Part shown: positions 15,602-49,606 of the stretch, in pieces
Position numbering within the stretch: position 1 is the stretch's first letter
Layout: each line of letters begins with the position of its first letter
Source of the DNA: Clostridia bacterium
GTDB lineage: Bacteria; Bacillota; Clostridia; Oscillospirales; Acutalibacteraceae
DNA length: 64,000 bases
Assembly (NCBI GenBank): GCA_017407755.1
Contig: JAFQVY010000015.1
Coordinates: forward strand, 6,135-70,134
Direction: 5' to 3'
Translations under genes and position numbers: made by a program
Notes under the pieces: model-generated
Database searches by the model: none
What the model was told of the DNA's origin: nothing
The model's input: only the letters and a program-made list of their open reading frames with translations

Positions 15602-15767
15602 AAAAAAACCTCCTAAAGTCTATAATATTCGACACAAATAGAGTATCATATCAGCCTCAGCGTTGTCAATTGTGTTAAACATAAAAATACAAGCAAACAA
15701 TTTATATGAAATGACGAAAATCCCCGCCGTTAATAAAACAGCGGGGATAATATATTGTTAACAGAAA

Positions 15768-19100: not shown

Positions 19101-19176
19101 GCTGGTGTAGCTCAGTCGGTAGAGCAGCTGATTCGTAATCAGCAGGTCGCGTGTTCAAGTCACGTCACCAGCTCCA
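19101..19176 (+). tRNA. tRNA-Thr (anticodon CGU), CCA encoded
   Basis: Cloverleaf read by hand: acceptor GCTGGTG/CACCAGC, D arm GCTC-AGTCGGTA-GAGC, anticodon arm GCTGA-TTCGTAA-TCAGC, T arm GCGTG-TTCAAGT-CACGT, then discriminator T and CCA. Confidence 0.9.
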
Positions 19177-19721: not shown

Positions 19722-20004
19722 GCCACAAAATAAAAAAGTGCGTAGCCGAAGCCACGCACCGAAAAATGCATAACTCGTTTGCCGCGACGCAATCTCAAAT
19801 ACTACCACAGTATGTGAAAATGAGCATGCATTTTTGCCAAAACAAAAACACACACTGTGGTAAAACTATTAAATTGCGCCGCAGGCTCATTATATCATCA
19901 AAATCTGTATTTTGCAATACAAAACCGTCGAACGCTAAAAATATTGCAACCTTAAAAAAAGTGTGCTATATTAATATTATCAATTTAAGAAAGGATTGGA
20001 ATTT

Positions 20005-22086
20005 ATGAAAAAACTCAAAAGAGTACTTTGCCTTGTGCTTACCCTTTTAATGGTAATGTCACTTTGCATGGTAACATTTACAGCTAATGCAGAAAGCAAC
20101 AATGCGCTCCCCGAAAGTGCTTCTGACTTCACTTGGGACAATGCAACTGTTTACTTTCTTTTAACTGACCGTTTTGCAAACGGCGATGAGTCTAACGACC
20201 ACAGCTACAACCGCGGTCTTGACAGAGACGGCAACGTAGCCGACTATAACACCGTTGCTTCTTTCCAGGGCGGTGACTTTAAGGGTCTTACCGAAAAAAT
20301 CGAGGAAGGCTATTTTACAGACCTTGGCGTTAATGCAATCTGGGTTTCAGGCTGGTATGAGCAGATCCACGGCTACACAGTAGGCGGTGACGGCAAAAAC
20401 TCCTTTGCCCACTACGCTTACCACGGCTACTATGCTCTGGACTACACCGAAATTGACAAAAACTTCGGTACAGAAGAAGAATTCAAGGCTATGATTGATG
20501 CCGCTCACGAAAAAGGCATCAGAGTAGTTATGGACGTTGTTTTAAACCACCCCGGCTACAACAACATCTACGATATGAACGAGTACGGCTACGGCGTGCT
20601 TAAAGAGGGTTGGGAAGACGTTTACTACGACTTCAGCAAAATAAACCAGACCAACTACCACGGCAAAATCGACTACAACACCGGTGCCGACATCTGGCTT
20701 AACTGGTGGGGCAAGGATTGGCTCAGAGCAGGTATTGCAGGCTATGACAACGACGGCGTCGGCGATTTAACAGGCTCTGCCGGCGGTATGCTCCCCGACT
20801 TTAAAACAGAGTCTCAGAAGGCTACCGAGCTGCCCCCCATTCTTCAGACAAAGTGGACTCGTGAGGGTACATTGGAAGAAAAAACTGCCGAGCTTGACGA
20901 AACCTTTGAAAAGTACAATCTTGGCGAAAAAACCATGAGAAACCACCTTGTAGCTTGGTATGCTCAGTGGGTTGAAAAGTACGGTATCGACGGCTTCAGA
21001 TGCGACACCGCAAAGCACGTTGAAAAGGACACTTGGAAGGCTTTAGACGAGGCTTGCACACAGGCACTCAACAACTGGAGAACAGAAAATCCCGATGCAG
21101 TAGGTGCAGATTGGGACGAAGAATTCTGGATGACAGGCGAGCATTTCGGTCAGAATCTTGCTGAAAATGACTACTACGAAAACGGCTTTGACTCTATGAT
21201 TAACTTCGCCTTCTCCCCCTCTGCTTCAGGCACAGGCGACAACGGTATGCTTAAGGCAAGAGACCTCAACAAAACCTACCAGACCTACGCCGACACTATA
21301 AACAAAAACGATAACTTCAACGCCCTTACATATATTTCTTCTCACGATACAGGACTTTGCAGAAAAGACCTTTTCTATCAGGGTTCTGCACTTCTTCTCC
21401 TTCCCGGCGGCGTTCAGATTTACTACGGTGACGAGAGTAACCGTGAATATGTAGAATGTACAATCCACGACCATGAAAACAGAAGCTTTATGAACTGGGA
21501 CTGGATTGAGGACAATACTGCCGCAAGTGCCGAGTACCTTGAGCACTGGCAGAAGGTTGGCACATTCAGAAACAACCACGTTGCAGTTGGTGCTGGCTCT
21601 CACAAAGTTCTTACTTCTACTGCCGACAACGAAGGCTCAAAGGACGGTATTGCTTTTGCAAGAACCTACGACAAGGGCGACGTTTACGACAAGGTTGTTT
21701 GTGTAATTGATGCTGAGCAGAACTGGGATATTACCATTAATGTTGCAGGCGTGTTCCCCAACGGCACCGAGCTTAAAAACACCTACACAGGCAAAACCGC
21801 AACCGTAGAAAATGGCAAGGTTATCTTCTACAGCGGCGACAATGGCACAATCCTTATTGAGCAGGTTGGCGGTGCAGTTAAACCCAGCACAGGCGACTAT
21901 GAGCTTGGCGACGTAAATATGGACGGTAAATTAAATATCCGTGATGCAACGCTTATTCAGAAATCCATTGCAAAAATGGAAACTCTTGACGACATTCAGT
22001 CACTTCTCGCTGATTATAACTCTGATGGCAAGGTAAACGTTAAAGACGCTACCGCAATCCAGAAATTTATAGCAGGAATTATCTGA
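20005..22086 (+). CDS. Secreted GH13 alpha-amylase with C-terminal type I dockerin
   Basis: Signal peptide. GH13 regions are DVVLNHPG, GFRCDTAKH, MTGEHFG and YISSHD. The C-terminal dockerin is GDVNMDGKLNIRDATLIQKSIA...DYNSDGKVNVKDATAIQKFIAG. The start was trimmed to the ATG at 20005. Confidence 0.92.
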   Translation: MKKLKRVLCLVLTLLMVMSLCMVTFTANAESNNALPESASDFTWDNATVYFLLTDRFANGDESNDHSYNRGLDRDGNVADYNTVASFQGGDFKGLTEKIEEGYFTDLGVNAIWVSGWYEQIHGYTVGGDGKNSFAHYAYHGYYALDYTEIDKNFGTEEEFKAMIDAAHEKGIRVVMDVVLNHPGYNNIYDMNEYGYGVLKEGWEDVYYDFSKINQTNYHGKIDYNTGADIWLNWWGKDWLRAGIAGYDNDGVGDLTGSAGGMLPDFKTESQKATELPPILQTKWTREGTLEEKTAELDETFEKYNLGEKTMRNHLVAWYAQWVEKYGIDGFRCDTAKHVEKDTWKALDEACTQALNNWRTENPDAVGADWDEEFWMTGEHFGQNLAENDYYENGFDSMINFAFSPSASGTGDNGMLKARDLNKTYQTYADTINKNDNFNALTYISSHDTGLCRKDLFYQGSALLLLPGGVQIYYGDESNREYVECTIHDHENRSFMNWDWIEDNTAASAEYLEHWQKVGTFRNNHVAVGAGSHKVLTSTADNEGSKDGIAFARTYDKGDVYDKVVCVIDAEQNWDITINVAGVFPNGTELKNTYTGKTATVENGKVIFYSGDNGTILIEQVGGAVKPSTGDYELGDVNMDGKLNIRDATLIQKSIAKMETLDDIQSLLADYNSDGKVNVKDATAIQKFIAGII

Positions 22087-33016: not shown

Positions 33017-33059
33017 AAAAAAGGAGATCCCCCAATCGGGAATCTCCTTTTTGTTTTTT
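33017..33059. terminator. Bidirectional terminator between lysC and the convergent giant gene
   Basis: AAAAAGGAGATCCC...GGGAATCTCCTTTTTGTTTTTT. Confidence 0.8.
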
Positions 33060-33064
33060 AAATA

Positions 33065-34009
33065 TCAGCCATTATATTCCTTAGCCGCCTGATTGTAAGC
33101 GTAAAGTGCCTTGACTACATTTTGAAGGTTTGTGTTACTTCCCTTAAGTGCAAGATCACCGTAGCTCAGAGCGTTGTAATTTAAGGTTAAATTACCGACT
33201 TCTACAATACAGTCGCTATCAAGGTTCTGAGCCAAGATGCCCTCTACCTTAACTTCAAAGTATTCGCCCTTATCTACAGCCTTTACTACCTTGCCGTTTG
33301 GAAGGGTGAATACTACTCTGGCATTTTCATCTGCAAGAGCCGCATCTGAAAGCTTTATATGGAAGCTTACTGCTATATTGTCTTTAAGGCTTATGTTGTA
33401 GCCTTTTACCTCTGAAATCTGCTGAACTAAACCGCAGTTGGTACATACGTTGTTTTCAAAGTTATGCTGGCATACCAACTTACAATTTGTGCAAACACCG
33501 TCTGCCCAAATATGAGAACAATTTTCGCCGCAGTTTTCGCAAACACCGTCTGTCCACTTATGACCAAGTGCAGGAATTGTCTTCTGCTCTGCAAGCACTT
33601 CACCGCAAACCGAGCATTTCTTACCCTCTGTAAGACCTGTCTCTGTGCAAGTTGCATCTTTGCCTGCTATGGTTTCTTCCTTGTGGTCAAGCTTAGAAAT
33701 TTCTTCCTGTGCTACAAGAATTTCACCGCAAACCGAGCATTTCTTACCTTCTGTAAGACCTGTCTCTGTGCAAGTTGCAGCTTTGCCTGCTATGGTTTCT
33801 TCCTTGTGGTCAAGCTTAGAAATTTCTTCCTGTGCTACAAGAATTTCGCCGCAAACCGAGCATTTCTTACCCTCTGTAAGACCTGTCTCTGTGCAAGTTG
33901 CATCTTTGCCTGCTATGGTTTCTTCCTTGTGGTCAAGCTTGGGAATTTCTTCCTGTGCTACAAGAACTTCACCGCAAACTGAGCATTTCTTACCCTCTGT
34001 AAGACCTGT
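33065..34009 (-). pseudogene. In-frame continuation of the giant secreted protein downstream of the internal TAG: 3.5 Cys-rich repeats, a CxxC cluster and a ~120-aa C-terminal domain
   Basis: I translated 34009 to 33598 by hand. There are no stops, and it is in the same frame as 34010-37294 (945 nt apart). The ORF-track start at 33598 is an internal GTG inside repeat 8. Confidence 0.8.
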
Positions 34010-34525
34010 CTATGTGCAAGTTGCATCTTTGCCTGCTATGGTTTCTTCCTTGTGGTCAAGCTTGGATATTTCTTCCTGTGCTACAAGAACTTCACCGCAA
34101 ACCGAGCACTTCTTACCTTCTGTAAGACCTGTCTCTGTGCAAGTTGCATCTTTGCCTGCTATGGTTTCTTCCTTGTGGCCAAGCTTAGGAATTTCTTCCT
34201 GCGCTACAAGAACTTCGTCGCAAACCGAGCACTTCTTACCTTCTGTAAGACCTGCCTCGGTGCAAGTTGCAGCTTTGCCCTTTAAGGTTTCTTCGGTGTG
34301 GCTTGCAGGAATTTCTTCCTGTGCTTTTGTGATTACACCGCAAACAGAGCACTTCTTGCCCTCTGTAAGGCCTGCCTCGGTACAAGTAGCGTCTTTGCCC
34401 TCTATAGTTTCTTCTTTGTGGCCAAGTGCGGGAATTGTTGTCTGCTTAGTAAGTACTTCACCGCAATCTAAGCATTCCTTACCCTCAGTAAGACCTGACT
34501 CTGTGCAAGTTGCGGCTACCGCAGA
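33560..34525 (-). repeat. Eight in-frame tandem repeats (seven of 123 nt, one of 120 nt) encoding 40-41-aa Cys-rich modules
   Basis: The anchor CTCTGTG/CTCGGTG recurs at 33641, 33764, 33887, 34010, 34133, 34256, 34376 and 34499. Consensus: EETIAGKDATCTETGLTEGKKCSVCGEVLVAQEEIxKLxHK. Units 4-8 are nearly identical at the DNA level. Confidence 0.95.
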
Positions 34526-37294
34526 CAAGGTCTTCACGTTTGTATGTGCACAGGCTTCTTCTACGGTGTAGCTGCCTGTAACATTGTGGTATGTGCCACT
34601 CCACTCAAAGAGGAGGATAATCTGGTTTTCTGCATAGGCTACTTCTTCTGTTGCCCATTTTCCGTTAGAACCCTTATCCCAAGTCTTCATTGCAACTGCT
34701 TCAGCAGGAACTGAAGTCTTATAAACCTTAAAGTTCTGCTTATCGTTGCTCCAGTATTCGGAGCCTACAGCGTACTGAACAGTTTCGCCTGTAGCAGTAA
34801 GAGTAGCATCGCCTGCAAGATTTGTGGAATTATTCCAGTAATGAAGTGTGGGAACAAAATCTTTAATGTACTCAATTACACCTACATATACTGTCTTGTT
34901 CTCAACAACGGGAAGCTCATCAGATGCCTTTGAAACAGTAAGTCTCTTTGCATCGGTATCAAAGGTAAATGTGTATGTTCCGCCCGTAGCTGTAAACTTA
35001 CAGTTGTCAGTAACAGATGTAGACATTTCCCAACGCATTGCACTGTCAGTAATTGTACCTGTATTACTATACCAAGCGCCGTTTGCATCAATCTTGAAAT
35101 CATAAGTGCCTGCCTCAAAAGCCTTGGTAATGGTGTAAACATTAGCTGTTGCTGTCTTCTTAAAGGGGTCTGTGCTTTGCCAGCTGTTAAATGCACCCTT
35201 AAGGTAGATTGCAGAATTCTCAGAAGACAAAGTGTCGGCTGTGTTGTATGTAATCTTATATGTACCGTCAGCCTTCATTACAAAAGTAAGAGTTCTGTAT
35301 GTGCCGTCTGAGTTTGCTGTACCGATAATAGCGGCTGAGCCTGCAGGAGCATTTGTATTCACTGTAACAGTAGAGCCGCTTAAGGTTACAAAGCCCTGAG
35401 CAGCATCGCCCATAACAAGGTCACCGTCAAGGTTAACGGTAAAGGAAGTTATGCTTGATGACATTGTAACTGTTGAGCCGTCCTGTGCAATACCGCCGGC
35501 AGCTAAGCTGTTCTCGGTGTTATTTGCATGAAGTGTAAGAGCAAGGCCTTCAAAGGACTCAGATGTAAGAGCCACTGTGTTGTTATCTGGCTTACTTGCA
35601 TTTGATGAGAAGCGGATTGTAGCATCTTTAAGCTTGCCGTTATACACTCTGAATGAGCTGTTGATACCAAGGTTTTCAAGATATGCAATAAAATCTGCAT
35701 CTGCATCGGAGTCTAATACAACGGAAGCTGATACACTTGCACCAATCGCCCAATAATAAAGTGTATTTTCAGAAGAATCGAAGTATACTCTGCCTTCTCT
35801 TGTCAGGTAGGTTGAACCTGTAGAGGGGTCAAGTATGCGGTATGTACCGTTTGTAAGAACGGAAGGAACTGTAAAATCAGGTGTAACTGTATCATCAACT
35901 GCAGTAAGGTAGTAGCTTTCAAGAGACTGATAGTTCATGCTTGTAACAAGACTATCGTACATATCAGAAACCTCTGCCTTAACTGTAACGCTAACGCCGC
36001 CGGGCATAACCTGAGTCTTATTACGGGAATCGTCACCTGTAACAAGGAAGATTGTGTTGCCCTTAGCCATTGTTGCTCCTGTTTCGATTTCGGGCTCTGT
36101 AATACCAATGAGCCAACCGGGAGATGCAGTTACCTTAGCGTTCTCTGCCTCAGCCTCAACAAGCTCTGCATAAACGTCGCTTATTGATTTGCCTGTTAGA
36201 GCACCGCCTGTGTTTGCATAATAATAAGCATAAGTGCGCATCCACATAGGTCTGCGGGCAGTCTCTATAAGTGCATCTTCCAAGTTTTCTTTATCTTTAT
36301 AAAGAGCAGCAAGTGCACTTGCTACCTGAGGTGTAATGAAAACCACTCGGTGAGTATCGGCATAAATGTCAGAGTCAGCACTGCCTAAACCGCCAAGATT
36401 CTTTTCGGTAATATCCCAAGCGATTATCTTCATAATCTCTTCGGGTAAATCTGTTGCAGGAGTAACGTTGTTACCCCACATAGCAAAAGAGGTAGCAGTA
36501 ACTGTGCTGTCGTTAAGACCAAAACCCTGCTGAACGTTATAGGGCTCCCAGCCGATATCAAGACAAGCCTGCTCGTTTTCTGAGAAAACAAGAGGTTGCA
36601 TATAGCCAAAGGAAGTTGAACGCTCTATTTTTGCAAGGTTAATAAGTGCAAACTCGATAAATCTGCCTAAAGAGATGTTAACCTCTTCGGTTGTCATACC
36701 CTGAGCATTATCAACGCCAAGCTGACGGGCAAGAGGGCCGTTGACAAATGCCATAGGTGTTAAACTGCCATCTGCAAGCGAGCTTACGTAAGCTTCGTCA
36801 TTCATAGCCTTAACAAAAGCTATACAAATAGGCATACACTCTGCAGAACAGCCTGACATAACTGCATTTACTGCAACCTGATAAGCAGTAACCTGAAGAT
36901 TGCCGATAGTGGCAACTACATCAGTGTCTGCCTCAGGTATATATCTCATAAATTTTTCAACCTTTAAGGTTGTGGGAGGAATAACAGGCATACCGTCTGT
37001 CTGCCCCAAATCCTTATAATAATCCTGTACCTGGTGGTACGCACCTGTAAACACAACTTCTGCACAATTTGTGTTAACAGAAGAACCGCTGACAGGCGAA
37101 ACTACCTTGAAAACGTTTTCGTCAGGCTCAAGGCAATCGCAATCGTCCTCGGCACAGTTAAGGTCTTCGTAAGAGTTAATGGTTTCATCATCATAATGAT
37201 ATGCATTTGCTGTAAAACCTACTGACATAAGGCTTAAGCCCATCATCAGACAGAGGAGTACAGCAACTACACGTTTAAATAAATTAGACTTCAT
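34010..37294 (-). CDS. Giant secreted protein, paralog B: unrecognised core domain + beta-rich domain + two CBM-like modules + Cys-rich repeats (ends at an in-frame TAG)
   Basis: Signal peptide MKSNLFKRVVAVLLCLMMGLSLMSVGFTANA. The core (DGMPVIPPT...AYQVAVNAVMSGC...GWEPYNVQQGF...RRPMWMRTYAYYYANTG) is paralogous to 37328-40021. CBM-like segments are YLKGAFNSWQ...GTYTFTFDTDAKRLTV and PTLHYWNN... Confidence 0.85.
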   Translation of the reverse strand: MKSNLFKRVVAVLLCLMMGLSLMSVGFTANAYHYDDETINSYEDLNCAEDDCDCLEPDENVFKVVSPVSGSSVNTNCAEVVFTGAYHQVQDYYKDLGQTDGMPVIPPTTLKVEKFMRYIPEADTDVVATIGNLQVTAYQVAVNAVMSGCSAECMPICIAFVKAMNDEAYVSSLADGSLTPMAFVNGPLARQLGVDNAQGMTTEEVNISLGRFIEFALINLAKIERSTSFGYMQPLVFSENEQACLDIGWEPYNVQQGFGLNDSTVTATSFAMWGNNVTPATDLPEEIMKIIAWDITEKNLGGLGSADSDIYADTHRVVFITPQVASALAALYKDKENLEDALIETARRPMWMRTYAYYYANTGGALTGKSISDVYAELVEAEAENAKVTASPGWLIGITEPEIETGATMAKGNTIFLVTGDDSRNKTQVMPGGVSVTVKAEVSDMYDSLVTSMNYQSLESYYLTAVDDTVTPDFTVPSVLTNGTYRILDPSTGSTYLTREGRVYFDSSENTLYYWAIGASVSASVVLDSDADADFIAYLENLGINSSFRVYNGKLKDATIRFSSNASKPDNNTVALTSESFEGLALTLHANNTENSLAAGGIAQDGSTVTMSSSITSFTVNLDGDLVMGDAAQGFVTLSGSTVTVNTNAPAGSAAIIGTANSDGTYRTLTFVMKADGTYKITYNTADTLSSENSAIYLKGAFNSWQSTDPFKKTATANVYTITKAFEAGTYDFKIDANGAWYSNTGTITDSAMRWEMSTSVTDNCKFTATGGTYTFTFDTDAKRLTVSKASDELPVVENKTVYVGVIEYIKDFVPTLHYWNNSTNLAGDATLTATGETVQYAVGSEYWSNDKQNFKVYKTSVPAEAVAMKTWDKGSNGKWATEEVAYAENQIILLFEWSGTYHNVTGSYTVEEACAHTNVKTLSAVAATCTESGLTEGKECLDCGEVLTKQTTIPALGHKEETIEGKDATCTEAGLTEGKKCSVCGVITKAQEEIPASHTEETLKGKAATCTEAGLTEGKKCSVCDEVLVAQEEIPKLGHKEETIAGKDATCTETGLTEGKKCSVCGEVLVAQEEISKLDHKEETIAGKDATCT

Positions 37295-37327
37295 ATAGTA
37301 ACATCCTTTCTGAATTTTGGTTAAACC

Positions 37328-40021
37328 TTAGCTAAAACTTTTAGCTGTGTTGTAGGTTATTGTGTATGTATTATTGGCGTTATAAAGAATGGTAAGTGCT
37401 TTGTATGTGCCATCGCCGTTGTCGATACCGATTATTGCAGTTGCGCCTTCTGCAGGAGTTTCAGAAATTGTAGCAGTACCGCCATTTAATGTAATAAATC
37501 CATCTGTTGAAGCGGCACTCATAACAAGTGTACCTTCAAGGTCAATACCAAAACTTCTGATACTGCCGTCAAGCAACACTGTTGCACCGTCTAAAGCGGC
37601 AGAGCCTTCGGTAGCACTGCCCTTGCCGTCTGTGTTAGCAGCAATTGTAAGGCTCATATTCTCAAAAAATCCGTCAGTTAAAGCTTTAGCATCTTTTTCC
37701 ATAGTCCTTGAAGAAGCAGAAACACGTAAAATAACATCAGTAACAAAACCGTTTTCAACCACAACTGAACTGTTAAGTCCGATTGCCTCAACAAGAGCAA
37801 TAAAGTCTGCATAAGTGGTAGTACCTAAAACAGTTGATGCCTGTGCACTTGCACCTACTGCGAAATATGTAAGGTTACCTGAACTGTAGTATATTCTTCC
37901 TTCGCTTGTGGTTTGGCTGCTGCTTACAACACGGTATGTGCCACCTGTAAGTCCTGAGGGTGCAGCTACTTTAAAGGATGGGTCTGGTGTATCGGTACCT
38001 GTGTTGTCGTCGCCCTCTTCACCTTCGTTGCCGCCTGTGCTGCCGTTGTCGGGGTTATAATAACCGTCGCCTGTTTCGGGGTCAGGATTAACCTCAGGAT
38101 TAACTGTGTTGTTAAGAAGTCCTTGCCAATTATCAGGAAGCTCAATTTCGTAAGAAGCACAGTCGCCGCCGGGCATAACCTGAAACTCGCTCTTAGAGTC
38201 TCCGCCTGTAACAACAATAGCAGTGTGACCTTTTTCCATAGTCTGGGCTGTTAAAAGTGTGTCAAAGGGAACAATACCCTGAAGCCACTGGGGAACTGCT
38301 GTGTTCTCAACTATGTCGGCCTCTACGTTTTCTGTAGATGCACCGTTAGCAAGGTCAGCATAATGCTGGTCAAAGGTTGTGTTAAGGTGAATCTTACTGC
38401 CTGTATTTGCCCAATAATGAGCATAAGTACGCATCCATAAAGGACGGCGTGCAGTAGCAATAAGAGTATCCTCAAGAGTATCTTTAGAATCATAAGCCTT
38501 AGCTAAATCAGCGGCAGTTTCTGCTGTAAGAAATACCATACGGGGAACCCTGGGGTTAGTGTTACCCAAGCCGTTCTGCTGCTTTTCGGTAATATCCCAC
38601 GAAAGAAGCTGCATAATCTTTTCTGCATCATCTGTTGCAGGAGTTACGCTGTTACCCCAAGTCATGGTAGAGCCGCAGGTGATAACATTTTCATCAGCCT
38701 CAAAGCCCTGTGTCACATGATAAGGCTCCCAACCGATAGCCTCACAGGTTGCTTCGTCCTCTGCAAAAGCAAAAGGCTCCATATAACCAAATGTACCCAT
38801 TCGGTTTTCTTTAATCTTATAGCCGGCAAGGTTAAGCATTGCAAGTGACATATATCTGCCTAAAAGCTTGTTAGCCTCGGCATTTGTCATATTTTCGTCA
38901 AAGCTGATTCCAAGCTCCTCTGCAATAGGACCGTTAACAAGAACGTAAGGTGTCCAAGCGTGGGTACTTACCAAAGGCTTGTAAAAATCGCCGTGGCCCA
39001 AACACTTTGTAATGGCTATGCAAAGAGGCATATACTCAGGAGGACAGCCTGCCATAATACAGTTAACTGCTACCTGATATGCAGTAATTGTGCGGTTTGC
39101 AGGGGGAACATCCTGTGCTTCGCCCGCGCGGTTTGTACAAACAAGGTCTTCAGCAGCATAATCTGTGTATGCAAGGTAATACTCTACCTTTGCCTTTGTG
39201 GGAGGAACAACAGGAAGACCGTCGGACATTTCGTTAACCTCAAAGAATTCCTGAATTCTCTGATATGAACCTGTAAAGATTACATCATCGTACTTTACGC
39301 TGTTAACTGCACCGGCAATCTCATCAATTTCAGCCTGTGTAATCTGAGTTGTTAACGCTGTAACAACCTGACTGTAAAGAATATCTCTTGCCTTTGTTTC
39401 CTGCTCTTCAGTAGTGTCAGCGGCAAAAGCACCGGGGTATGCGGCTGTTCTTACAACAGGAACACCGCGGCTTAAGCCTGTTGAGCGAATCTGAGCGATA
39501 AATGTCTCGGCACCTACTACAACAGCAGGAATACCGATGTACTCTGCGGCGAGAGCATTACCTGTTTCCTTAACAGTACAGATACCGCAACCGCAGTTAC
39601 CTGAAATTACAGCATCAACACCGTACTCAATAAGCTTCTGCTGGAATTCTTTGGACTGAGCGCTCTGGTTGTTGGGGTTAAAGGTACCGCCCTTACCAAT
39701 CTCGTCCATATAATAGGTTTTGCAGTCAAACTCTTTCTCAAGCATATCTCTGAGAATTGCATGAGTAACAGAAGCACTGAAGCTTCCGCCAACAAGAGCA
39801 ATGGTTTTGCCCTGTAAGGTATCCAATCTGTCTACCTGTGTTATAGACTCAATGGTTGAGCCTGTGGGCACGGGAGATACTACCGCAAAAGAGTTGTTTT
39901 TAGGCTCGATGTCAGCAAGCTCTGTGGCAGAAGCAGAGGGTATTGCCACCAAAGCCATAGAAACCAAGCAAAGCAAACTCAACATAAGCGACAGTATCCG
40001 CTTTAAGATGTTTGATTTCAT
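37328..40021 (-). CDS. Giant secreted protein, paralog A: CGCGIC redox-like (UGSC-like?) N-domain + unrecognised core domain + beta-rich domain
   Basis: Signal peptide MKSNILKRILSLMLSLLCLVSMALVAIPSASA. The N-domain is GKTIALVGGSF...VISGNCGCGICTVKETGNALAAEYIGIPAVVV. The core is DGLPVVPPT...AYQVAVNCIMAGC...GWEPYHVTQGF...RRPLWMRTYAHYWANTG. There is a G/E/D/N/T-rich linker. Confidence 0.85.
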   Translation of the reverse strand: MKSNILKRILSLMLSLLCLVSMALVAIPSASATELADIEPKNNSFAVVSPVPTGSTIESITQVDRLDTLQGKTIALVGGSFSASVTHAILRDMLEKEFDCKTYYMDEIGKGGTFNPNNQSAQSKEFQQKLIEYGVDAVISGNCGCGICTVKETGNALAAEYIGIPAVVVGAETFIAQIRSTGLSRGVPVVRTAAYPGAFAADTTEEQETKARDILYSQVVTALTTQITQAEIDEIAGAVNSVKYDDVIFTGSYQRIQEFFEVNEMSDGLPVVPPTKAKVEYYLAYTDYAAEDLVCTNRAGEAQDVPPANRTITAYQVAVNCIMAGCPPEYMPLCIAITKCLGHGDFYKPLVSTHAWTPYVLVNGPIAEELGISFDENMTNAEANKLLGRYMSLAMLNLAGYKIKENRMGTFGYMEPFAFAEDEATCEAIGWEPYHVTQGFEADENVITCGSTMTWGNSVTPATDDAEKIMQLLSWDITEKQQNGLGNTNPRVPRMVFLTAETAADLAKAYDSKDTLEDTLIATARRPLWMRTYAHYWANTGSKIHLNTTFDQHYADLANGASTENVEADIVENTAVPQWLQGIVPFDTLLTAQTMEKGHTAIVVTGGDSKSEFQVMPGGDCASYEIELPDNWQGLLNNTVNPEVNPDPETGDGYYNPDNGSTGGNEGEEGDDNTGTDTPDPSFKVAAPSGLTGGTYRVVSSSQTTSEGRIYYSSGNLTYFAVGASAQASTVLGTTTYADFIALVEAIGLNSSVVVENGFVTDVILRVSASSRTMEKDAKALTDGFFENMSLTIAANTDGKGSATEGSAALDGATVLLDGSIRSFGIDLEGTLVMSAASTDGFITLNGGTATISETPAEGATAIIGIDNGDGTYKALTILYNANNTYTITYNTAKSFS

Positions 40022-40098
40022 GAAATCATCCTCTCAAAAAATTTTTAATATGAACCGCCGATAAAACCGCACTTATCAGCGTAAATATTACTGTTTAA

Positions 40099-40953
40099 TT
40101 ACTGTGTCAGTGCCGAAGATGTGGGCACTTCAGGCAGGTCTTTTGGGTTATAGTAGGTAACGTCACCGAAGAATGCATCGGCAAAAATCGAAGCCGAGGT
40201 AGTGTCATCAATAAATTTAAGCCTGCCGTTTTCGTCAAAGGTGTATGAAACTGTGTGCTCTGTGTCCTTATCTGTAACAAGGCTAAATGTAAGCTTGCCG
40301 TCTTTGGCGGTATATGCATAGTACATATATCGGTCAAGACCTAAATCCTCGCTTTCGTAATGAATGGTCATTACACCGTTATCTTTAACACTTACTGTTT
40401 CGGTATAGTAAAAGGAATAGTACATATAAGCAAGACTTCGCTCGTTAGTTGCCCACTCCCCTACTAAGAGCTTGTCGACCTCATAATCCTTATAGGCTGA
40501 TTTTTCGTATCGGGGAGCCTTTGCCTGCTCAAGCACATACTCCTCAGCCTCATAGGTAACTCCTGTGCTTTCGTCGGTATATTCAGGGTAAATAAGAGAC
40601 ACTTTGGCATTTCCCAAAAGCTTGGAGCCTGTGATTTTGTACTCAAGATTTTCAGAGCCAAGATTTATTTTCTCAACGCCCTCTTCCTCTAAAAGAGCAT
40701 ACTCATAATACTCAATTCCGCCCTGATAACAGATGTGCCACTGGCCCTTGCCGTATTTGTCGGGTTTGTCAAAAACATAATAAACCCTGTCGCTGTCATC
40801 AACCTCGTCAGGGGTTGCAACCATAACCTCAGGGTTTACGGTAAGCTCCCAAGCGCCTTTAATGGTTTTAGGCACAATAAAAGAGCCTCCTATAACAACA
40901 CCTGCAACAATAAAAACCGCAACAATAACTATAAAAACAAGTTTCTTTTTCAT
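40099..40953 (-). CDS. Membrane-anchored protein with two lipocalin-like (DUF5640-like) halves
   Basis: N-terminal TM (LVFIVIVAVFIVAGVVIGGSFIV). Two Tyr-rich beta-type halves begin at GAWELT... and GEWATN... The family assignment is tentative. Confidence 0.6.
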   Translation of the reverse strand: MKKKLVFIVIVAVFIVAGVVIGGSFIVPKTIKGAWELTVNPEVMVATPDEVDDSDRVYYVFDKPDKYGKGQWHICYQGGIEYYEYALLEEEGVEKINLGSENLEYKITGSKLLGNAKVSLIYPEYTDESTGVTYEAEEYVLEQAKAPRYEKSAYKDYEVDKLLVGEWATNERSLAYMYYSFYYTETVSVKDNGVMTIHYESEDLGLDRYMYYAYTAKDGKLTFSLVTDKDTEHTVSYTFDENGRLKFIDDTTSASIFADAFFGDVTYYNPKDLPEVPTSSALTQ

Positions 40954-40965
40954 AAAAATTCCGCC

Positions 40966-41541
40966 TTATGTATTTCCGTATTTTTTCATTAAATCAATTA
41001 CGCTTTGCACCATTAAATGATAGCTTTCGGTGGCTGAACCGGGGTCGTCTTCAAAAGCTCCCATAACCTCAAGAGAGGAAAAACCATGTGTAACTACACG
41101 AATCATCCTCAGTATATGCACCTGAGCGTCAGCATCTTCAACACCGTACTGCTTCATAAGAATAAAAATAGGTTCAATATACCTTTTATTCAATTCTTCT
41201 GCCTCAGGTGAGTCTGACCATTTTACGGTGTTGGCGATTTCATAAAGGTGAGGGTGCTCATTAACAAAACTTCTGAAAGCATCTCCCGTGGAAAAAGCCG
41301 CTTCGTCTCGCACCAAGTCCCCTCTGGCACTATTGATACAGTCGGTAAACATTTTTACCGAGCGTACAATTACCTCTACAAGTATATCCTTTTCGCCGCT
41401 GATGTGGTTGTAAAGTGAAGAAACCTGAACATTGAGCCTTGCCGCCAGCTTTCTCAAAGAAAACTCAGCTCTGCCCTGTTTATCTATAAAATCAAAGGCT
41501 TCTTTAATTATTTTTTCTCGTGATAATAATTTACTTGTCAT
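40966..41541 (-). CDS. TetR/AcrR-family transcriptional regulator
   Basis: IIKEAFDFIDKQGRAEFSLRKLAARLNVQVSSLYNHI HTH. The start was trimmed to the ATG at 41541, with GGGAGAGAG upstream. Confidence 0.88.
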   Translation of the reverse strand: MTSKLLSREKIIKEAFDFIDKQGRAEFSLRKLAARLNVQVSSLYNHISGEKDILVEVIVRSVKMFTDCINSARGDLVRDEAAFSTGDAFRSFVNEHPHLYEIANTVKWSDSPEAEELNKRYIEPIFILMKQYGVEDADAQVHILRMIRVVTHGFSSLEVMGAFEDDPGSATESYHLMVQSVIDLMKKYGNT

Positions 41542-41555
41542 ATCTCTCTCCCGAA

Positions 41556-41570
41556 ACGAACACTGTTCGT
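41556..41570. promoter_or_regulatory. Perfect 15-bp palindrome, candidate TetR operator
   Basis: ACGAACA-C-TGTTCGT. It lies between the -10 box and the tetR start codon. Confidence 0.6.
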
Positions 41571-41580
41571 ATTTTATTTT

Positions 41581-41610
41581 ATTATATAATTTAAACCCCT
41601 TGTCTGTCAA
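41581..41610 (-). promoter_or_regulatory. Consensus sigma-A promoter of the tetR-headed cluster
   Basis: Minus strand: TTGACA (41605-41610), 18-nt spacer, TATAAT (41581-41586). Confidence 0.7.
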
Positions 41611-41685
41611 CGTAAACCTTCGCTTTTTGTATAGTTTATTTTGTCTCAGTCAAATGTTTTGCAGCAATTTACATAAAAACACAGG

Positions 41686-41722
41686 CAAAAAAACGGCTGC
41701 CTCAAAAGGTAGCCGTTTTGGT
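41686..41722 (-). terminator. Terminator of the ABC exporter operon
   Basis: AACGGCTGCC...GGTAGCCGTT hairpin with a flanking T-run on the minus strand. Confidence 0.65.
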
Positions 41723-41723
41723 T

Positions 41724-43505
41724 TTAGTCGTTATCAGAAAACTGAGAATTATAAAGTTTAGCGTAAAGTCCGTCTTTAGCCATCAAAGTTTCGTGGTTAC
41801 CAACTTCTAAGATGTCGCCGTCCTGCATATAGAGGATATTCTCGGCATCCTTAATAGTTGAGAGTCTGTGAGCAATTACAAAAGAAGTCTTGCCCTTCAT
41901 CATCTCGCTCATAGCTTCCTGAATCATAACCTCGGTACGGGTATCAACAGAAGATGTAGCCTCGTCAAGGATAAGAATGGGGGGATTATTAAGCATTGCT
42001 CTTGCAATAGTTAAGAGCTGACGCTGACCCTGAGCGATGTTAGAGGCACCCTCCTGCAAAACAAAGTTGTAACCGCCGGGGAGTGTGCGGATAAATGCAT
42101 CTGCCCTTGCTTTCTTTGCCGCCTCGATAACCTCTTCGTCAGAAGCGTTAAGCTTACCGTAGCGGATATTTTCCATAATTGTGCCGTTATAAAGCCAAGT
42201 GTCCTGTAAAACCATACCGAATATTTCTCTGAGTCTCTCACGCTTCATATCACGGATATCGACGCCGTCAATCTTAATGGCACCGCCCTTAACATCGTAG
42301 AAACGCATAATAAGGTTAATAAGGGTGGTTTTACCTGCACCTGTGGGACCAACGATAGCTGTCTTCTCTCCTGCACCGATTTTGATATCAAGGTCGTGGA
42401 TAAGTGTCTGGTGAGGAAGGTAACCGAAACGGATGTGGTCAAATGTTACCTGACCCTTAAGAGAAACGGGGAACTTGGGATTTTCTGTGTCGGGAACTTC
42501 CTCGGTTTCGTCTAAGAACTCAAAAATTCTCTGAGCCGCTGAGCCTGTGGACTGGATAATGTTTGTAATCTGCATTACCTGTGTAAGAGGCTGAGAGAAC
42601 TGGCGAAGGTAAAGTGTAAAGGACTGAATCATACCAACGGAAAGTCCGCCTAAAATTGCAATAATTGCACCCACAACACACACAAGTGCATAGCCAAGGT
42701 TTGTTGTGTTCTGCATAATTGGCATCAAGGTGCCTGAGAGGAACTGTCCGTCTTTAGATGCCTCGAAAAGGTCATCGTTGGTTTCTTCAAACTCCTCAAT
42801 AACCGTATCTTCTCTGCCAAATACCGTAACAACGTTGTGACCTGAATAATACTCCTCAACAAAGCCGTTGAGCTCGCCTGTTTTCTGCTGCTGAGCATCA
42901 AACTTAGCCTTGGACTTCTTGGCAATTTTTGATGCAACAAGCAAAGCCACAGGGATAGCGGCAATTCCCACAAAGGTAAGCACGCCGCTGATATTAAGCA
43001 TTATTATAAAGATAATGATGATTGTAAAGAATGCATTTAAAATCTGATAAATGCTCTGCTGTAAAGAGTTTGAAACCGTGTCGACATCGTTTGTAATACG
43101 GCTTAAAATATCGCCGTAGGAGTTTGTGTCGTAGTAATTTAAAGGAAGCTTTGAAAGCTTATAGTCAACCTGCTTTCTAAGGTCATAAATTGTGTTTTCC
43201 GTAACACCTACAATAAGGCATGTACCTATATAAGAAAGCAGTGAGTTAATTCCGTAAGCACCGCCCATAAGAATAAGGAACATAATAAAGTCTGCCCCTG
43301 CCTGAGCGGTTCTGCCGTTTTGAAGGATTTCTGACAAGAAGTTTGTTGCATTACCCATAAAGAGAGGTGCAAGTGCATAAGCGATATTTGCAAGCATAAT
43401 AAGGATAACTGCCAAAATAAGTCTGCCTCTGTAGGGCTTCATATAAGAAAACAGTCTCTTATATGTTCCCTTCTGAGTGGAGGATTTTTTAAACTTTTTC
43501 ATCAC
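41724..43505 (-). CDS. ABC exporter half-transporter (TMD-NBD), subunit with a deviant signature motif
   Basis: 6 TM plus an NBD. GPTGAGKTTL and LILDEATSSVD are present. The signature reads NIAQGQRQ instead of LSGGQ. Confidence 0.9.
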   Translation of the reverse strand: MMKKFKKSSTQKGTYKRLFSYMKPYRGRLILAVILIMLANIAYALAPLFMGNATNFLSEILQNGRTAQAGADFIMFLILMGGAYGINSLLSYIGTCLIVGVTENTIYDLRKQVDYKLSKLPLNYYDTNSYGDILSRITNDVDTVSNSLQQSIYQILNAFFTIIIIFIIMLNISGVLTFVGIAAIPVALLVASKIAKKSKAKFDAQQQKTGELNGFVEEYYSGHNVVTVFGREDTVIEEFEETNDDLFEASKDGQFLSGTLMPIMQNTTNLGYALVCVVGAIIAILGGLSVGMIQSFTLYLRQFSQPLTQVMQITNIIQSTGSAAQRIFEFLDETEEVPDTENPKFPVSLKGQVTFDHIRFGYLPHQTLIHDLDIKIGAGEKTAIVGPTGAGKTTLINLIMRFYDVKGGAIKIDGVDIRDMKRERLREIFGMVLQDTWLYNGTIMENIRYGKLNASDEEVIEAAKKARADAFIRTLPGGYNFVLQEGASNIAQGQRQLLTIARAMLNNPPILILDEATSSVDTRTEVMIQEAMSEMMKGKTSFVIAHRLSTIKDAENILYMQDGDILEVGNHETLMAKDGLYAKLYNSQFSDND

Positions 43506-45232
43506 TTACCCTCCTTACTCATCTGAGAATCTACAATTTCCTTGTAGACATCGCAGGTTTCAAGAAGCTCTTTGTGAGTGCCCATGCCTGCAACCTGACC
43601 GTTTTCAATAACAATAATTCTGTCAGCATCAATAATTGTGCTGATTCTCTGGGCAACGATAACAACCGTTGCATCCCCTGTTTCTTTAGAAAGAGCCTGA
43701 CGTAAAGCCTTGTCTGTCTTAAAGTCAAGGGCAGAGAAGCTGTCGTCAAACACATAAATCTCAGGCTTTCTGACTACCGCACGGGCTATAGCAAGACGTT
43801 GACGCTGACCGCCCGAAACATTTGTACCGCCCTGAGAAATAGGCGCATTAAAGCCGCCTTCCTTCTTCATAACGAAGTCATAGGACTGAGCAATCTTAAC
43901 TGCTTCTTCAATTCTGTCTTCCGAAGCATTTCTGTCGCCGAACTGTATGTTTGAATCAATTGTGCCTGCAAAAAGCACCGCTTTCTGAGGAACAAAGCCG
44001 ATTTTATTTCTTAAAACCGCGGTGTCGTAATCTCGTACGTCAACACCGTCAACAAGCACCTGACCCTCGGTTACGTCGTAAAGACGAGGAATAAGGTTAA
44101 CAATTGTGGATTTACCCATACCTGTACCGCCGATAATGGCAGTTGTCTCACCGGGCTTTGCCTCAAAAGAAAGGTTTTCAATAGCAGGTACGTCGGCACC
44201 GGGGTAAGTAAATGTTACGTTCTTGAATGTAAGGTAACCGCGCTTTTCACTGTTATCCTTTGTTTCCTTTTTATTCTGAATTACAGGCTCTGTGTCAAGC
44301 ACTTCCTTTGCTCTTGCCGCAGCAGTTGAAGCACGGGGAAGCATAACAAAAACCATGGTAAGCATAATTACAGCCATCATAATCTGCATAATGTACTGAA
44401 TAATGGCCATAACTTCGCCGATTGTATAGTCAATGCCCTTGTTAAGGCTCTGATTAGCCGCCATCAGCATTACCAAAGCCGCAGTAAGGGGAAGGATTAT
44501 CATAAGCACAGGCATAACAAGGTTAGTTGTACGCTGAAGCTTTTTGTTTGTCTTCTGATAATCTCTGTTAATCTCATCAAACTTCTTTGACTCAAAATCC
44601 ACTGTACCAAAAGCTCGTATTACACGCACGCCTGTAAGCTTTTCTCGCATAACAAGGTTAATGCGGTCCATTTTAACCTGAATTTTTGTAGAAAGAGGAA
44701 TGGCAATCTTTGCAATTGTAACAAGAACAATTGCCATTAACGGAATTGAAATTACAAGCACACTCGAAAGCTGAGGTGAACTTGAAATTGCAAGCACAAT
44801 ACCGCAAATGCACATAATAGGCGCCTGTACGGCAATCCTTAAACACTGGTTCAGAAAAACCTGAACCTGAGTAATGTCGTTGTTTGTTCTTGTAATAAGA
44901 GAAGATGCGGAGTATTTGTCGATTTCTGTCTGAGAAAAATACTGCACCTTATTAAAAATCTTGCTTCTTAAGTTTTTTCCTACTCCCATTGAAACAGTGG
45001 AGGAAAGTCTGCTGGTCATAACACCGCAGAAAAGACCGAAAACAACAAGAGCAATCATAAAGCCACCGACTCTTATTACCATTGCCATGTCTTCATTGGG
45101 AATTGCAACGTCAATAAGCCGCATCAAAAGAGACGGCAAGCCGAGAGCAGAAAGGGTTGTGCCAAGAACTGTAAGTACAATCAGCACAAGCTCTTTTTTA
45201 TAACGCCCAAGCTCTTTAAATACACATTTCAT
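43502..45232 (-). CDS. ABC exporter half-transporter (TMD-NBD), subunit with a degenerate Walker B
   Basis: GGTGMGKSTI and VSGGQRQRLAIARAV are present. Walker B is YVFDDSFSALD, with Asp in place of the catalytic Glu. 4-nt overlap with the partner gene. Confidence 0.9.
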   Translation of the reverse strand: MKCVFKELGRYKKELVLIVLTVLGTTLSALGLPSLLMRLIDVAIPNEDMAMVIRVGGFMIALVVFGLFCGVMTSRLSSTVSMGVGKNLRSKIFNKVQYFSQTEIDKYSASSLITRTNNDITQVQVFLNQCLRIAVQAPIMCICGIVLAISSSPQLSSVLVISIPLMAIVLVTIAKIAIPLSTKIQVKMDRINLVMREKLTGVRVIRAFGTVDFESKKFDEINRDYQKTNKKLQRTTNLVMPVLMIILPLTAALVMLMAANQSLNKGIDYTIGEVMAIIQYIMQIMMAVIMLTMVFVMLPRASTAAARAKEVLDTEPVIQNKKETKDNSEKRGYLTFKNVTFTYPGADVPAIENLSFEAKPGETTAIIGGTGMGKSTIVNLIPRLYDVTEGQVLVDGVDVRDYDTAVLRNKIGFVPQKAVLFAGTIDSNIQFGDRNASEDRIEEAVKIAQSYDFVMKKEGGFNAPISQGGTNVSGGQRQRLAIARAVVRKPEIYVFDDSFSALDFKTDKALRQALSKETGDATVVIVAQRISTIIDADRIIVIENGQVAGMGTHKELLETCDVYKEIVDSQMSKEGK

Positions 45233-48874: not shown

Positions 48875-49606
48875 TTATTTTGCAGGCACAAAAGGAAGTT
48901 CAATGGGCTTGTTAGGGTCAACAGTTGTACCCATTGTAGTTTCTTCTGAAGGCTCAGTAGCCGCTGAAGTTTCAGTAGTAATCTGTGTAGGCACCTCAGT
49001 AGGGTCAGTCGGCAAGGAGGATACAGGCTCAGTAGCCGATGTAGTCTCAGTAGGAATCTGTGAAGTTGCCTCTGTAGGGTCTGTCGGTAATGTTAAAACG
49101 GATTCAGCAGGAACTGAAACCTCTGTCGGCTCTGTCTTTATGCTTTCGCTTATGGCAACCGTTGTAATCATTTCAGCAGGGTCAGTTGCCGTTGTTTTTG
49201 TTGCACAGGTAGCAAAAGACGAAACAACACTTTGGGTTGCTTCTTCGGTTAAATCCGATGAAGCAATAGACTCAGGCTGAGTGCTTGCGGTGTAAGCGGT
49301 AGTAGGCACTGTCTCCGCTTCAGCCATAAAAAGCTCCTTAACAAGCCCTGCAAGCCATTTTTGCAAATGAGTAACATCTTTTATGCTAACGCCCTTTTTG
49401 CCGTCAACGTCTGATAATAAAAGCTGTGACTGAGAAAGGGTATTAAGCTTTGCAAGGTGCTTTTGTATAAGGGTGGCGTCCTTAATATTCACCTTTAAGT
49501 CTCCGTTAACGTCTCCTGCCATAGGCTGAGCGTCTGCAATTACAACTATAGCGGTTGAAGCTATAATCAATACTGCCAAAAAGGCAGATATTATCTTTCT
49601 GATCAT
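48875..49606 (-). CDS. Secreted protein with N-terminal dockerin, T/E/P-rich repeat linker and C-terminal ELPFVPAK
   Basis: Signal peptide, then GDVNGDLKVNIKDATLIQKHLA...DVDGKKGVSIKDVTHLQKWLAG. An internal duplicate LPTDPTEATSQIPTETTSATEP / LPTDPTEVPTQITTETSAATEP follows. The protein ends PIELPFVPAK. Confidence 0.8.
   Translation of the reverse strand: MIRKIISAFLAVLIIASTAIVVIADAQPMAGDVNGDLKVNIKDATLIQKHLAKLNTLSQSQLLLSDVDGKKGVSIKDVTHLQKWLAGLVKELFMAEAETVPTTAYTASTQPESIASSDLTEEATQSVVSSFATCATKTTATDPAEMITTVAISESIKTEPTEVSVPAESVLTLPTDPTEATSQIPTETTSATEPVSSLPTDPTEVPTQITTETSAATEPSEETTMGTTVDPNKPIELPFVPAK

Follow-up and report, generated by a model that had tools for sequence, protein, structure and literature searches.

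What do two very large secreted proteins do when they are encoded next to each other and share a long domain that resembles no characterised protein family? The question is raised by a 64-kb stretch of DNA from a Clostridia bacterium (contig JAFQVY010000015.1 of assembly GCA_017407755.1; this whole stretch is referred to as the window, and all positions are numbered within it). Positions 33065-41610 hold a cluster of four open reading frames (ORFs), all on the minus strand, which encode a TetR-family regulator, a membrane-anchored protein of 284 residues and the two large paralogues, here called A and B (Table 1). From the sequence of the window, an earlier reading (the original prediction) had proposed that A and B represent an undescribed family of extracellular enzymes, carbohydrate-active or redox-active, under ligand control by TetR. 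The analysis described here points to a more specific answer: with a probability slightly better than even (about 0.55), A and B together form, as its two subunits, a thiol-dependent oxidoreductase of the long-form UGSC family, which is secreted, acts at the cell surface and is most likely a reductase.

A and B share a core domain without characterised relatives

The two paralogues align with 41% identity over 662 residues (E = 1e-149), and all of the shared motifs listed in the original prediction are found in this alignment. Their signal peptides, which had been called near-identical, are merely similar, with 10 of 25 residues identical. A comprises a signal peptide, a UGSC domain, the core and a beta-rich domain. 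Its exact sequence is deposited as MBQ2687870.1, "hypothetical protein [Clostridia bacterium]", from a metagenome-assembled genome (MAG). Ruminococcus bromii itself was considered as the source of the window and rejected, since the exact proteins are those of this uncultured, Ruminococcus-like rumen MAG, whose relatives are Ruminococcus sp. B begins with a signal peptide and a Cys-rich acidic stretch, which are followed by the core (residues 79-464), the beta-rich domain, two modules resembling carbohydrate-binding modules (CBMs) and a series of CxxC repeats. B is 52-54% identical to the products of giant genes found downstream of A-like genes in two related loci (L001 and L003). The beta-rich domain is absent from most A-type homologues (about 650 residues), and a homologue search with B's copy retrieved three fragments only.

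The core, about 400 residues long, was said to defy assignment to any characterised family, and this proved correct in every comparison made. No match to it emerged when every protein of the cluster was compared with Pfam and NCBIfam. When 38 members of a core alignment were compared singly with Pfam at E values up to 1, the only recurrent match was to the UGSC domain; matches to DUF6733, obtained with six of the 38 and with a best E of 1e-3, were too weak to be retained and were dismissed as noise. Searches of PDB sequences, with single proteins and with a profile, found no match. The AlphaFold2 model of the core has a mean local confidence (pLDDT) of 89.7 and a predicted template-modelling score (pTM) of 0.90. 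Foldseek comparison of this model with the PDB returned no fold match (best E = 0.87, template-modelling (TM) scores of 0.16 or less). The best match, to CyuA, combines this E value with a TM score of 0.10 and was likewise discarded as noise.

Sixteen columns are invariant among 38 core sequences whose identity goes down to 24%, and the cysteine of a Met-Ala-Gly-Cys (MAGC) motif is near-invariant. A and B keep every invariant column (PPT, A..M.GC, P, NGP, R, N, G, E, W, G). The MAGC cysteine is Cys326 in A (codon 39044-39046) and Cys149 in B. The conserved positions had been described as enzyme-like, a view with which the conservation of cysteine and acidic residues agrees: both proteins look like secreted enzymes. 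Two specific interpretations of the MAGC region were considered and rejected. The aligned sequences do not fit the C-x-P-x-R pattern of a sulfatase-type formylglycine site, and the extra cysteines around MAGC, candidates for an iron-sulfur site, are not conserved beyond the gut clade.

The N-terminal domain of A and the UGSC family

The CxxC domain by which A had been said to differ from B is a Pfam UGSC domain (PF24696). Its motif, C145-G-I-C148, is encoded at positions 39578-39589. The NCBIfam equivalog for short-form UGSC proteins (NF041046, a 147-position model) gave 31.3 bits with A, below its cut-off of 125; A is a relative of this equivalog and not a member of it. The same domain is matched weakly by the models for GrdB, the selenoprotein B subunit of glycine/betaine/sarcosine reductase, and for PrdB, its counterpart in D-proline reductase (TIGR01917, 33 bits against a cut-off of 602; TIGR01918, 29.2 against 65.45; TIGR04483, 17.4 against 300). 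B gave no match in the PF24696 scan and does not qualify as a UGSC member by the Pfam model.

A word-indexed search with the core retrieved 1215 relatives. The best 120 of these are nearly all proteins of about 650 residues in which a UGSC domain precedes a core that is 64-74% identical to that of A; their sources are Ruminococcus, Lachnospiraceae, Oscillospiraceae and Kiritimatiellae. Signal peptides were present in all nine A-type homologues read, and the CxxC motif was retained in every secreted A-type protein read. One close homologue (P0041) carries the UniRef name "UGSC family (seleno)protein". An exhaustive HMMER search yielded 2596 cluster representatives, of which 1216 had E values of 1e-10 or less. 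In a scan of genomes, the core was found in two groups of organisms: rumen and gut Bacteroidales, Akkermansia, Lentisphaeria, Kiritimatiellae and Planctomycetes on the one side, and Beta- and Alphaproteobacteria, Chloroflexi, Acidobacteria and Actinobacteria from water and soil on the other.

In 52 core ORFs from loci of Proteobacteria, Chloroflexi and Acidobacteria, the called start lies just after an in-frame TGA. Read-through of this codon reveals the sequence G-x-G-x-U-G-x-C-T-P-A, the UGSC motif, without a signal peptide; these distant members are cytoplasmic selenoproteins. The TGA, read as selenocysteine (Sec), occupies the position of Cys145 of A. It follows from this coincidence and from the UGSC-then-core order that long-form UGSC (seleno)proteins have the core as their C-terminal domain, and that A is a secreted homologue with cysteine at the Sec position. 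In six loci from Chloroflexi and Betaproteobacteria (L038, L039, L047, L057, L059 and L064), two or three separate Sec-type UGSC-core genes lie within 17 kb, an instance of paralogous expansion of the family in those genomes.

The family is not undescribed, as had been thought, since A belongs, as a Cys-type protein, to the UGSC family, which is known from bioinformatics (PF24696; PMC2398784). This family was defined by sequence analysis by Zhang and Gladyshev in 2008, who noted its fusion to a domain termed "Unknown_1" (PMC2398784). The long-form UGSC proteins with a core are probably this UGSC/Unknown_1 fusion; core motifs were looked for in that paper's sequence supplement, in truncated form, with no match. 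In metagenomes from aquatic environments, the UGSC proteins form one of the most abundant families of selenoproteins, and no function has been assigned to them since the 2000s (PMC2398784; PMC13188914). Literature searches for PF24696 and for secreted GrdB-like or PrdB-like proteins returned nothing relevant.

In summary of its family relations, A passes the Pfam model with its N-terminal domain, its CxxC aligns with the UxxC of true selenoproteins, and it has the domain order of the Sec-containing long forms. It departs from these forms in having Cys for Sec, a signal peptide and an extracellular location, an extra beta-rich domain, and a giant UGSC-less paralogue as its partner, which bears modules of the starch-binding type. 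No model of the C-terminal core exists in Pfam or NCBIfam.

Redox partners and paired cores in related loci

A flavoprotein resembling thioredoxin reductase (TrxR) and containing a CxxC motif is encoded next to 12-13 of about 50 cytoplasmic UGSC-core loci. In two loci (L065 and L084), the order is UGSC-core gene, core-only gene, TrxR-like gene. Redox genes of a different kind accompany secreted forms in Bacillota: the UGSC-core gene is followed by the gene for CcdA in L010, and by genes for an AhpC/TSA-Redoxin (TlpA-like) protein and then CcdA in L018. CcdA and a TlpA-like redoxin form the standard route by which reducing power is carried across the membrane, and the order in both loci is that expected of a client of the CcdA/TlpA pathway. 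The likeness to the CcdA/DsbD-TlpA/ResA pathways lies in this position of the UGSC-core gene directly upstream of CcdA, with the TlpA-like redoxin in L018; in contrast to the components of those pathways, the UGSC-core protein is not of thioredoxin fold by any test run.

Cores also tend to occur in pairs. Each of the 13 Ruminococcus-type loci has A followed by B. Among the distant loci, about 10 hold a core paralogue without UGSC domain together with a Sec-type gene, often directly beside it. Of 11 such UGSC-less ORFs examined, nine keep MAGC and ten keep DGLPxxPPT. The partners may even be fused, as in P0121 (signal peptide, UGSC, core, core, LPKTG anchor) and P0123 (signal peptide, core, UGSC, core), and tandem core-core proteins exist. 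Taken together, the TrxR and CcdA neighbours, the recurrent pairing and fusion of cores and the conservation of the core lend support to the idea of a heteromeric thiol/selenol reductase.

Other neighbours were recorded in Bacteroidales and Akkermansia. In four loci from Muribaculaceae and Prevotellaceae MAGs (L011, L014, L016 and L023; about 9384-10400), the single UGSC-core gene is followed, after 12-18 nt, by a gene for a protein of ~335 residues that combines a dockerin with a domain of the formylglycine-generating enzyme (FGE)-sulfatase type, so that the two form a conserved pair. C10 peptidases are also encoded near UGSC-core genes of Bacteroidales, and an M60-like peptidase near one in an Akkermansia MAG. 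These associations hint at a role in the breakdown of extracellular polymers or glycoproteins more generally. The window itself encodes a sortase-domain protein of 435 residues (57066-58373, plus strand), which may be relevant to relatives of A and B with an LPKTG end, such as P0121.

Starch-binding-type modules of paralogue B

The CBM-like modules attributed to B resemble starch-binding domains, as judged by sub-threshold matches, homologues and Foldseek. The homologous module passes the Pfam cut-off in P0133 (29.8) and in P0136 (X25, 27.2). AMPK1_CBM is, like X25, among the modules of B-type homologues, and others of these carry CBM26 (68 bits), Dockerin_1, CotH or Listeria-Bacteroides repeats. 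A model of residues 466-915 of B (pLDDT 82) gave as its top Foldseek matches a pullulanase, a maltohexaose-forming amylase and the starch-binding domain of AmyP. The five best matches had E values from 2e-3 to 5e-3, and the top seven had probabilities of 0.75-1.0. The beta-rich domain in this model matched nothing significant.

A dockerin-bearing GH13 amylase is encoded at 19996-22086 on the plus strand. Two other dockerin proteins are encoded on the minus strand, one with leucine-rich repeats of the BspA type (13625-15601) and one of 243 residues consisting of a dockerin only (48875-49606). The presence of three dockerin proteins in the window supports an amylosome-like lifestyle. From the modules of B, the CBM26 and dockerins of its homologues, the Foldseek matches and the dockerin proteins of the window, it seems likely that the B-type subunit is tethered to alpha-glucan or to an amylosome. 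The closest parallels are accessory proteins of Ruminococcus amylosomes and cellulosomes, with which B-type homologues have Dockerin_1, CBM26 and CBM48-like modules in common; the dockerin-bearing amylase and the other dockerin proteins of the window add to the likeness. B of the window differs from these proteins in lacking a dockerin, and its catalytic part contains no glycoside hydrolase or detectable CAZy-type domain. Of the two kinds of activity initially envisaged, the redox alternative is favoured; carbohydrate catalysis found no support.

Interruption of the B reading frame

Paralogue B had been counted as ~1409 codons. An in-frame TAG at 34010-34012 reduces this to 1094 residues. The codon belongs to copy five of a tandem repeat of 123 nt, and the other copies have GAG in its place. 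Beyond it, the open frame adds four further repeat copies, then a segment rich in cysteine and, at the C-terminus, a beta domain, all of which would be lost if the stop were real. A metagenomic contig that is 99.9% identical (L089) encodes an uninterrupted B of 1245 residues, of which the continuation forms part, with four repeat copies (15500-15960) against eight in the window. The existence of this intact B with fewer repeats suggests that the TAG may have arisen by mutation in the strain or by an error of assembly. As to the difference in repeat number, either the copy number is truly polymorphic or repeats have collapsed in assemblies of short reads; two more contigs, L090 and L091, end within B. 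Two antisense ORFs opposite the repeat array (308 residues, 33645-34571; 172 residues, 33464-33982; both plus strand) are a by-product of the repeat periodicity and not genes.

Companion gene, transcription signals and regulator

The 284-residue protein, labelled lipocalin-like in the original prediction, gave no Pfam or NCBIfam match at E values up to 0.1. In L001, the gene that precedes the A-like one encodes a protein with which it is 51% identical, and members of its family were also found in L008, L009 and L088-L091. All 187 family members come from Ruminococcus/Oscillospiraceae-type sources, on contigs shared with A-like proteins; the protein is conserved as a companion of the A-B pair.

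The layout of signals and intergenic gaps proposed at the outset was confirmed. The TTGACA-18-TATAAT promoter ahead of tetR is perfect and is the sole site with 12 of 12 consensus matches between positions 32900 and 41900. The genes, said to be separated by 12-77 nt, have gaps of 12, 77 and 33 nt, with a ribosome-binding site after each. The palindrome ACGAACAcTGTTCGT is present at the predicted place and occurs once in the whole window. The start codon of tetR is the ATG at 41541; a supposed TTG start at 41610 is in fact the -35 box. In the 77-nt gap between the 284-residue gene and A, a 10-bp hairpin without a T run (40056-40081, minus strand) might mark a processing site or act as a partial attenuator. 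An Rfam scan found no RNA element in the cluster; its only match in the window was a tRNA gene (19101-19173, plus strand).

Besides the C-terminal match given in Table 1, the TetR protein scores 18.4 bits with Pfam TetR_N, below the cut-off of 24, and matches the NCBIfam TetR N-terminal region with E = 3.7e-7. An identical 191-residue gene was called in contig L089. In related loci (L001, L003 and L088), however, the association with TetR is missing. The genes found upstream include a two-component system (L001 and L010), a transposase (L003) and CotH (L088), and in one Rikenellaceae locus a divergent TetR gene stands beside the module. A local regulator thus seems usual in such loci, but because TetR itself is absent from related ones, any TetR control would be a species-specific, local feature, incidental to the system, and not a property of the enzyme family as had been proposed.

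Directly upstream of the tetR promoter lie two adjoining genes for ATP-binding cassette (ABC) exporter half-transporters (593 and 576 residues; 41724-45232, minus strand), which end in their own terminator (41683-41702). MsbA, CydDC and multidrug families match them about equally, and no curated cut-off was passed. A CydDC-type thiol exporter was considered and rejected on this ground and because the link is absent in related loci; the pair is a generic exporter. The TetR gene may historically have belonged to these exporter genes.

Table 1. Positions of the cluster's genes, domains and signals in the window.
Feature	Positions	Strand	Remarks
Promoter, sigma-70 type	41581..41610	-	TTGACA (41610-41605), 18-nt spacer, TATAAT (41586-41581); 12/12 consensus matches
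Candidate TetR operator, palindrome ACGAACAcTGTTCGT	41556..41570		15 bp, perfect 7-1-7; 10 nt downstream of -10 box
TetR-family regulator, 191 residues	40966..41541	-	TetR_C_33, 60.9 bits (cut-off 26.8)
284-residue protein	40099..40953	-	Single N-terminal hydrophobic anchor; no family match
Paralogue A, 897 residues	37328..40021	-	Signal peptide, UGSC, core, beta-rich domain
UGSC domain of A, residues 47-224	39350..39883	-	PF24696, 54.7 bits (cut-off 25), E = 1.8e-14
Core domain of A, residues 246-645	38087..39286	-	No family match
Beta-rich domain of A, residues 680-897	37331..37984	-	Common to B
Paralogue B as read, 1094 residues	34010..37294	-	Stop TAG at 34010-34012
Two CBM-like beta modules of B, residues 693-790 and 795-912	34559..35218	-	
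Tandem repeat of B, 123 nt (41 residues)	33572..34513	-	7.7 copies; His and C...CxxC unit per copy
In-frame continuation of B past TAG	33065..34009	-	314 codons; four repeats, Cys-rich segment, beta domain at C-terminus
Terminator-like hairpin, end of cluster	33018..33052	-	Intrinsic type; 15-bp stem, then T run

Discussion

The reductase proposed above might work as follows. A would supply the redox relay, a UGSC domain related to GrdB and PrdB in which C145-x-x-C148 takes the place of U-x-x-C, and A and B would each supply one catalytic core of ~400 residues with its near-invariant MAGC cysteine. Electrons would come from an extracytoplasmic thiol donor, delivered in some lineages by a CcdA/TlpA-type pathway; in the present genome the donor could be ambient sulfide or cysteine. 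From the CxxC pair, electrons would pass to the active sites of the cores and on to the substrate. The starch-binding-type modules of B would hold the complex on alpha-glucan, while relatives with dockerins would instead be held on the amylosome. The membrane-anchored 284-residue protein would be a conserved accessory of the complex, and in this species the module would be read from the TetR-headed promoter with its candidate operator. The domain assignments, the paralogy of A and B, their family relations, the secretion signals and the gene contexts are established by the sequences; that A and B form a heteromer, which way electrons flow and that the cysteines are catalytic is what we infer. 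As to the substrate, our best guess is that starch granules or glycoproteins present it, either as protein cross-linked by disulfides or as some other oxidised group.

Several observations weigh against this proposal. The core has no fold relative in the PDB, and it is conservation that speaks for a catalytic role of Cys326 and Cys149. CcdA adjoins just 2 of about 30 secreted-type loci, and neither CcdA nor thioredoxin-like or other electron-donor genes were found among the ORFs of the 64-kb window, a further difference from the CcdA/DsbD-TlpA/ResA pathways. The matches of B to AMPK1_CBM, X25 and CBM53 stay below the Pfam cut-offs (21.3 against 26.8, 19.9 against 27 and 14.9 against 27.6, respectively), and B is possibly truncated by the TAG codon. 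More generally, reviews up to 2026 still list UGSC-containing proteins as uncharacterised.

Could A and B instead be enzymes without redox function, for example hydrolases or transferases with a cysteine nucleophile that act on extracellular glycans or peptides, the UGSC domain serving, in secreted members of the Cys type, a structural or regulatory purpose only? That B retains every invariant residue of the core in spite of lacking a UGSC domain would fit such a role, as would the link of the family to CBMs, dockerins and amylosome-type genes, and the position of Bacteroidales and Akkermansia homologues beside C10 peptidases, an M60-like peptidase and dockerin/FGE-sulfatase-domain proteins. 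Against this stand the CxxC, kept in every secreted A-type protein read, and the CcdA and TlpA-like genes next door in L010 and L018. UGSC-less cores are, moreover, almost always found beside or fused to a core that bears UGSC; the alignment offers no invariant histidine for a classical Cys-His dyad; and neither Pfam nor the Foldseek search of the PDB revealed a glycoside-hydrolase or peptidase family or fold. We regard this explanation as unlikely, if worth keeping in mind. The same multi-module architecture, with CBM-like modules and repeats in large secreted proteins and dockerins or LPXTG anchors in their homologues, might be thought to denote non-catalytic surface proteins, such as adhesins or scaffold parts of an amylosome-like assembly. 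Yet the core, with 64-74% identity across phyla and invariant polar residues, is conserved far beyond what is typical of adhesins, its relatives include Sec-containing proteins of the cytoplasm, and redox-partner genes adjoin. This possibility appears very remote.

A different chemistry is suggested by the fact that the sole detectable relatives of the UGSC domain are GrdB, PrdB and the selenoprotein-B subfamily, the similarity being weak but specific around the Sec/Cys-x-x-Cys of A. By analogy, the system could catalyse a reductive cleavage of the Grd/Prd type, with the core as the functional counterpart of GrdE/PrdA. Self-cleavage at the Gly-Cys bond of MAGC would then generate a pyruvoyl group that binds an amine substrate, and the Cys or Sec of the UGSC domain would attack, so that a C-N or C-X bond is cleaved reductively. 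An invariant glycine does precede the near-invariant cysteine. Grd operons carry trxB, to which the TrxR-like genes beside cytoplasmic UGSC-core genes present a parallel, and genes for peptide-binding proteins and peptidases neighbour some of the cytoplasmic loci. Against this, no similarity of the core to GrdE or PrdA was found by Pfam, NCBIfam or fold search; the partner domain is an unrelated one, and the Pfam and NCBIfam scans detected no GrdA, GrdE, PrdA or GrdC/D partner among the cluster proteins. The scores of A with the GrdB and PrdB models (33 against 602 and 17 against 300) are far under the curated cut-offs. In addition, the model places the cysteine in a short turn between two helices, which is untypical of a self-processing loop, the proteins of the window are secreted, and a small-molecule amine is a substrate that fits poorly with starch-binding modules and dockerins. 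A Grd/Prd-style enzyme therefore seems improbable to us.

We thus retain the thiol-dependent reductase as the preferred interpretation. What appears to be new is a secreted, Cys-type UGSC complex made of paralogue pairs with starch-binding-type modules; the UGSC family as such was already known by sequence. A bolder extension, which we put forward as a speculation and think unlikely, is that the A-B complex represents a reductive "auxiliary activity" of anaerobes. A Cys- or Sec-type reductase, extracellular and tethered to starch or to the amylosome, would open the disulfide-cross-linked protein matrices around starch granules or, in the versions of Bacteroidales, Akkermansia and Kiritimatiellae, mucin networks; or else it would modify the polymer reductively and so give hydrolases access. 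Its catalytic fold would have no solved relative, and the same chemistry would underlie the abundant UGSC selenoproteins of aquatic environments.

The locus and its relatives make the function of UGSC proteins accessible to experiment, in the form of a proposed two-core complex served by one UxxC/CxxC relay, with a TrxR-like donor inside the cell and a CcdA/TlpA-like donor outside. They also provide a catalytic domain with a confident structural model and no relative in the PDB. Expression should be far easier than with selenoproteins, because the secreted Cys versions can be made without selenocysteine machinery. Finally, these secreted versions are fused to starch-binding modules and to dockerins, which suggests a part for redox chemistry in polymer breakdown by gut anaerobes; if this is true, the proteins described here would constitute a new class of accessory enzyme.

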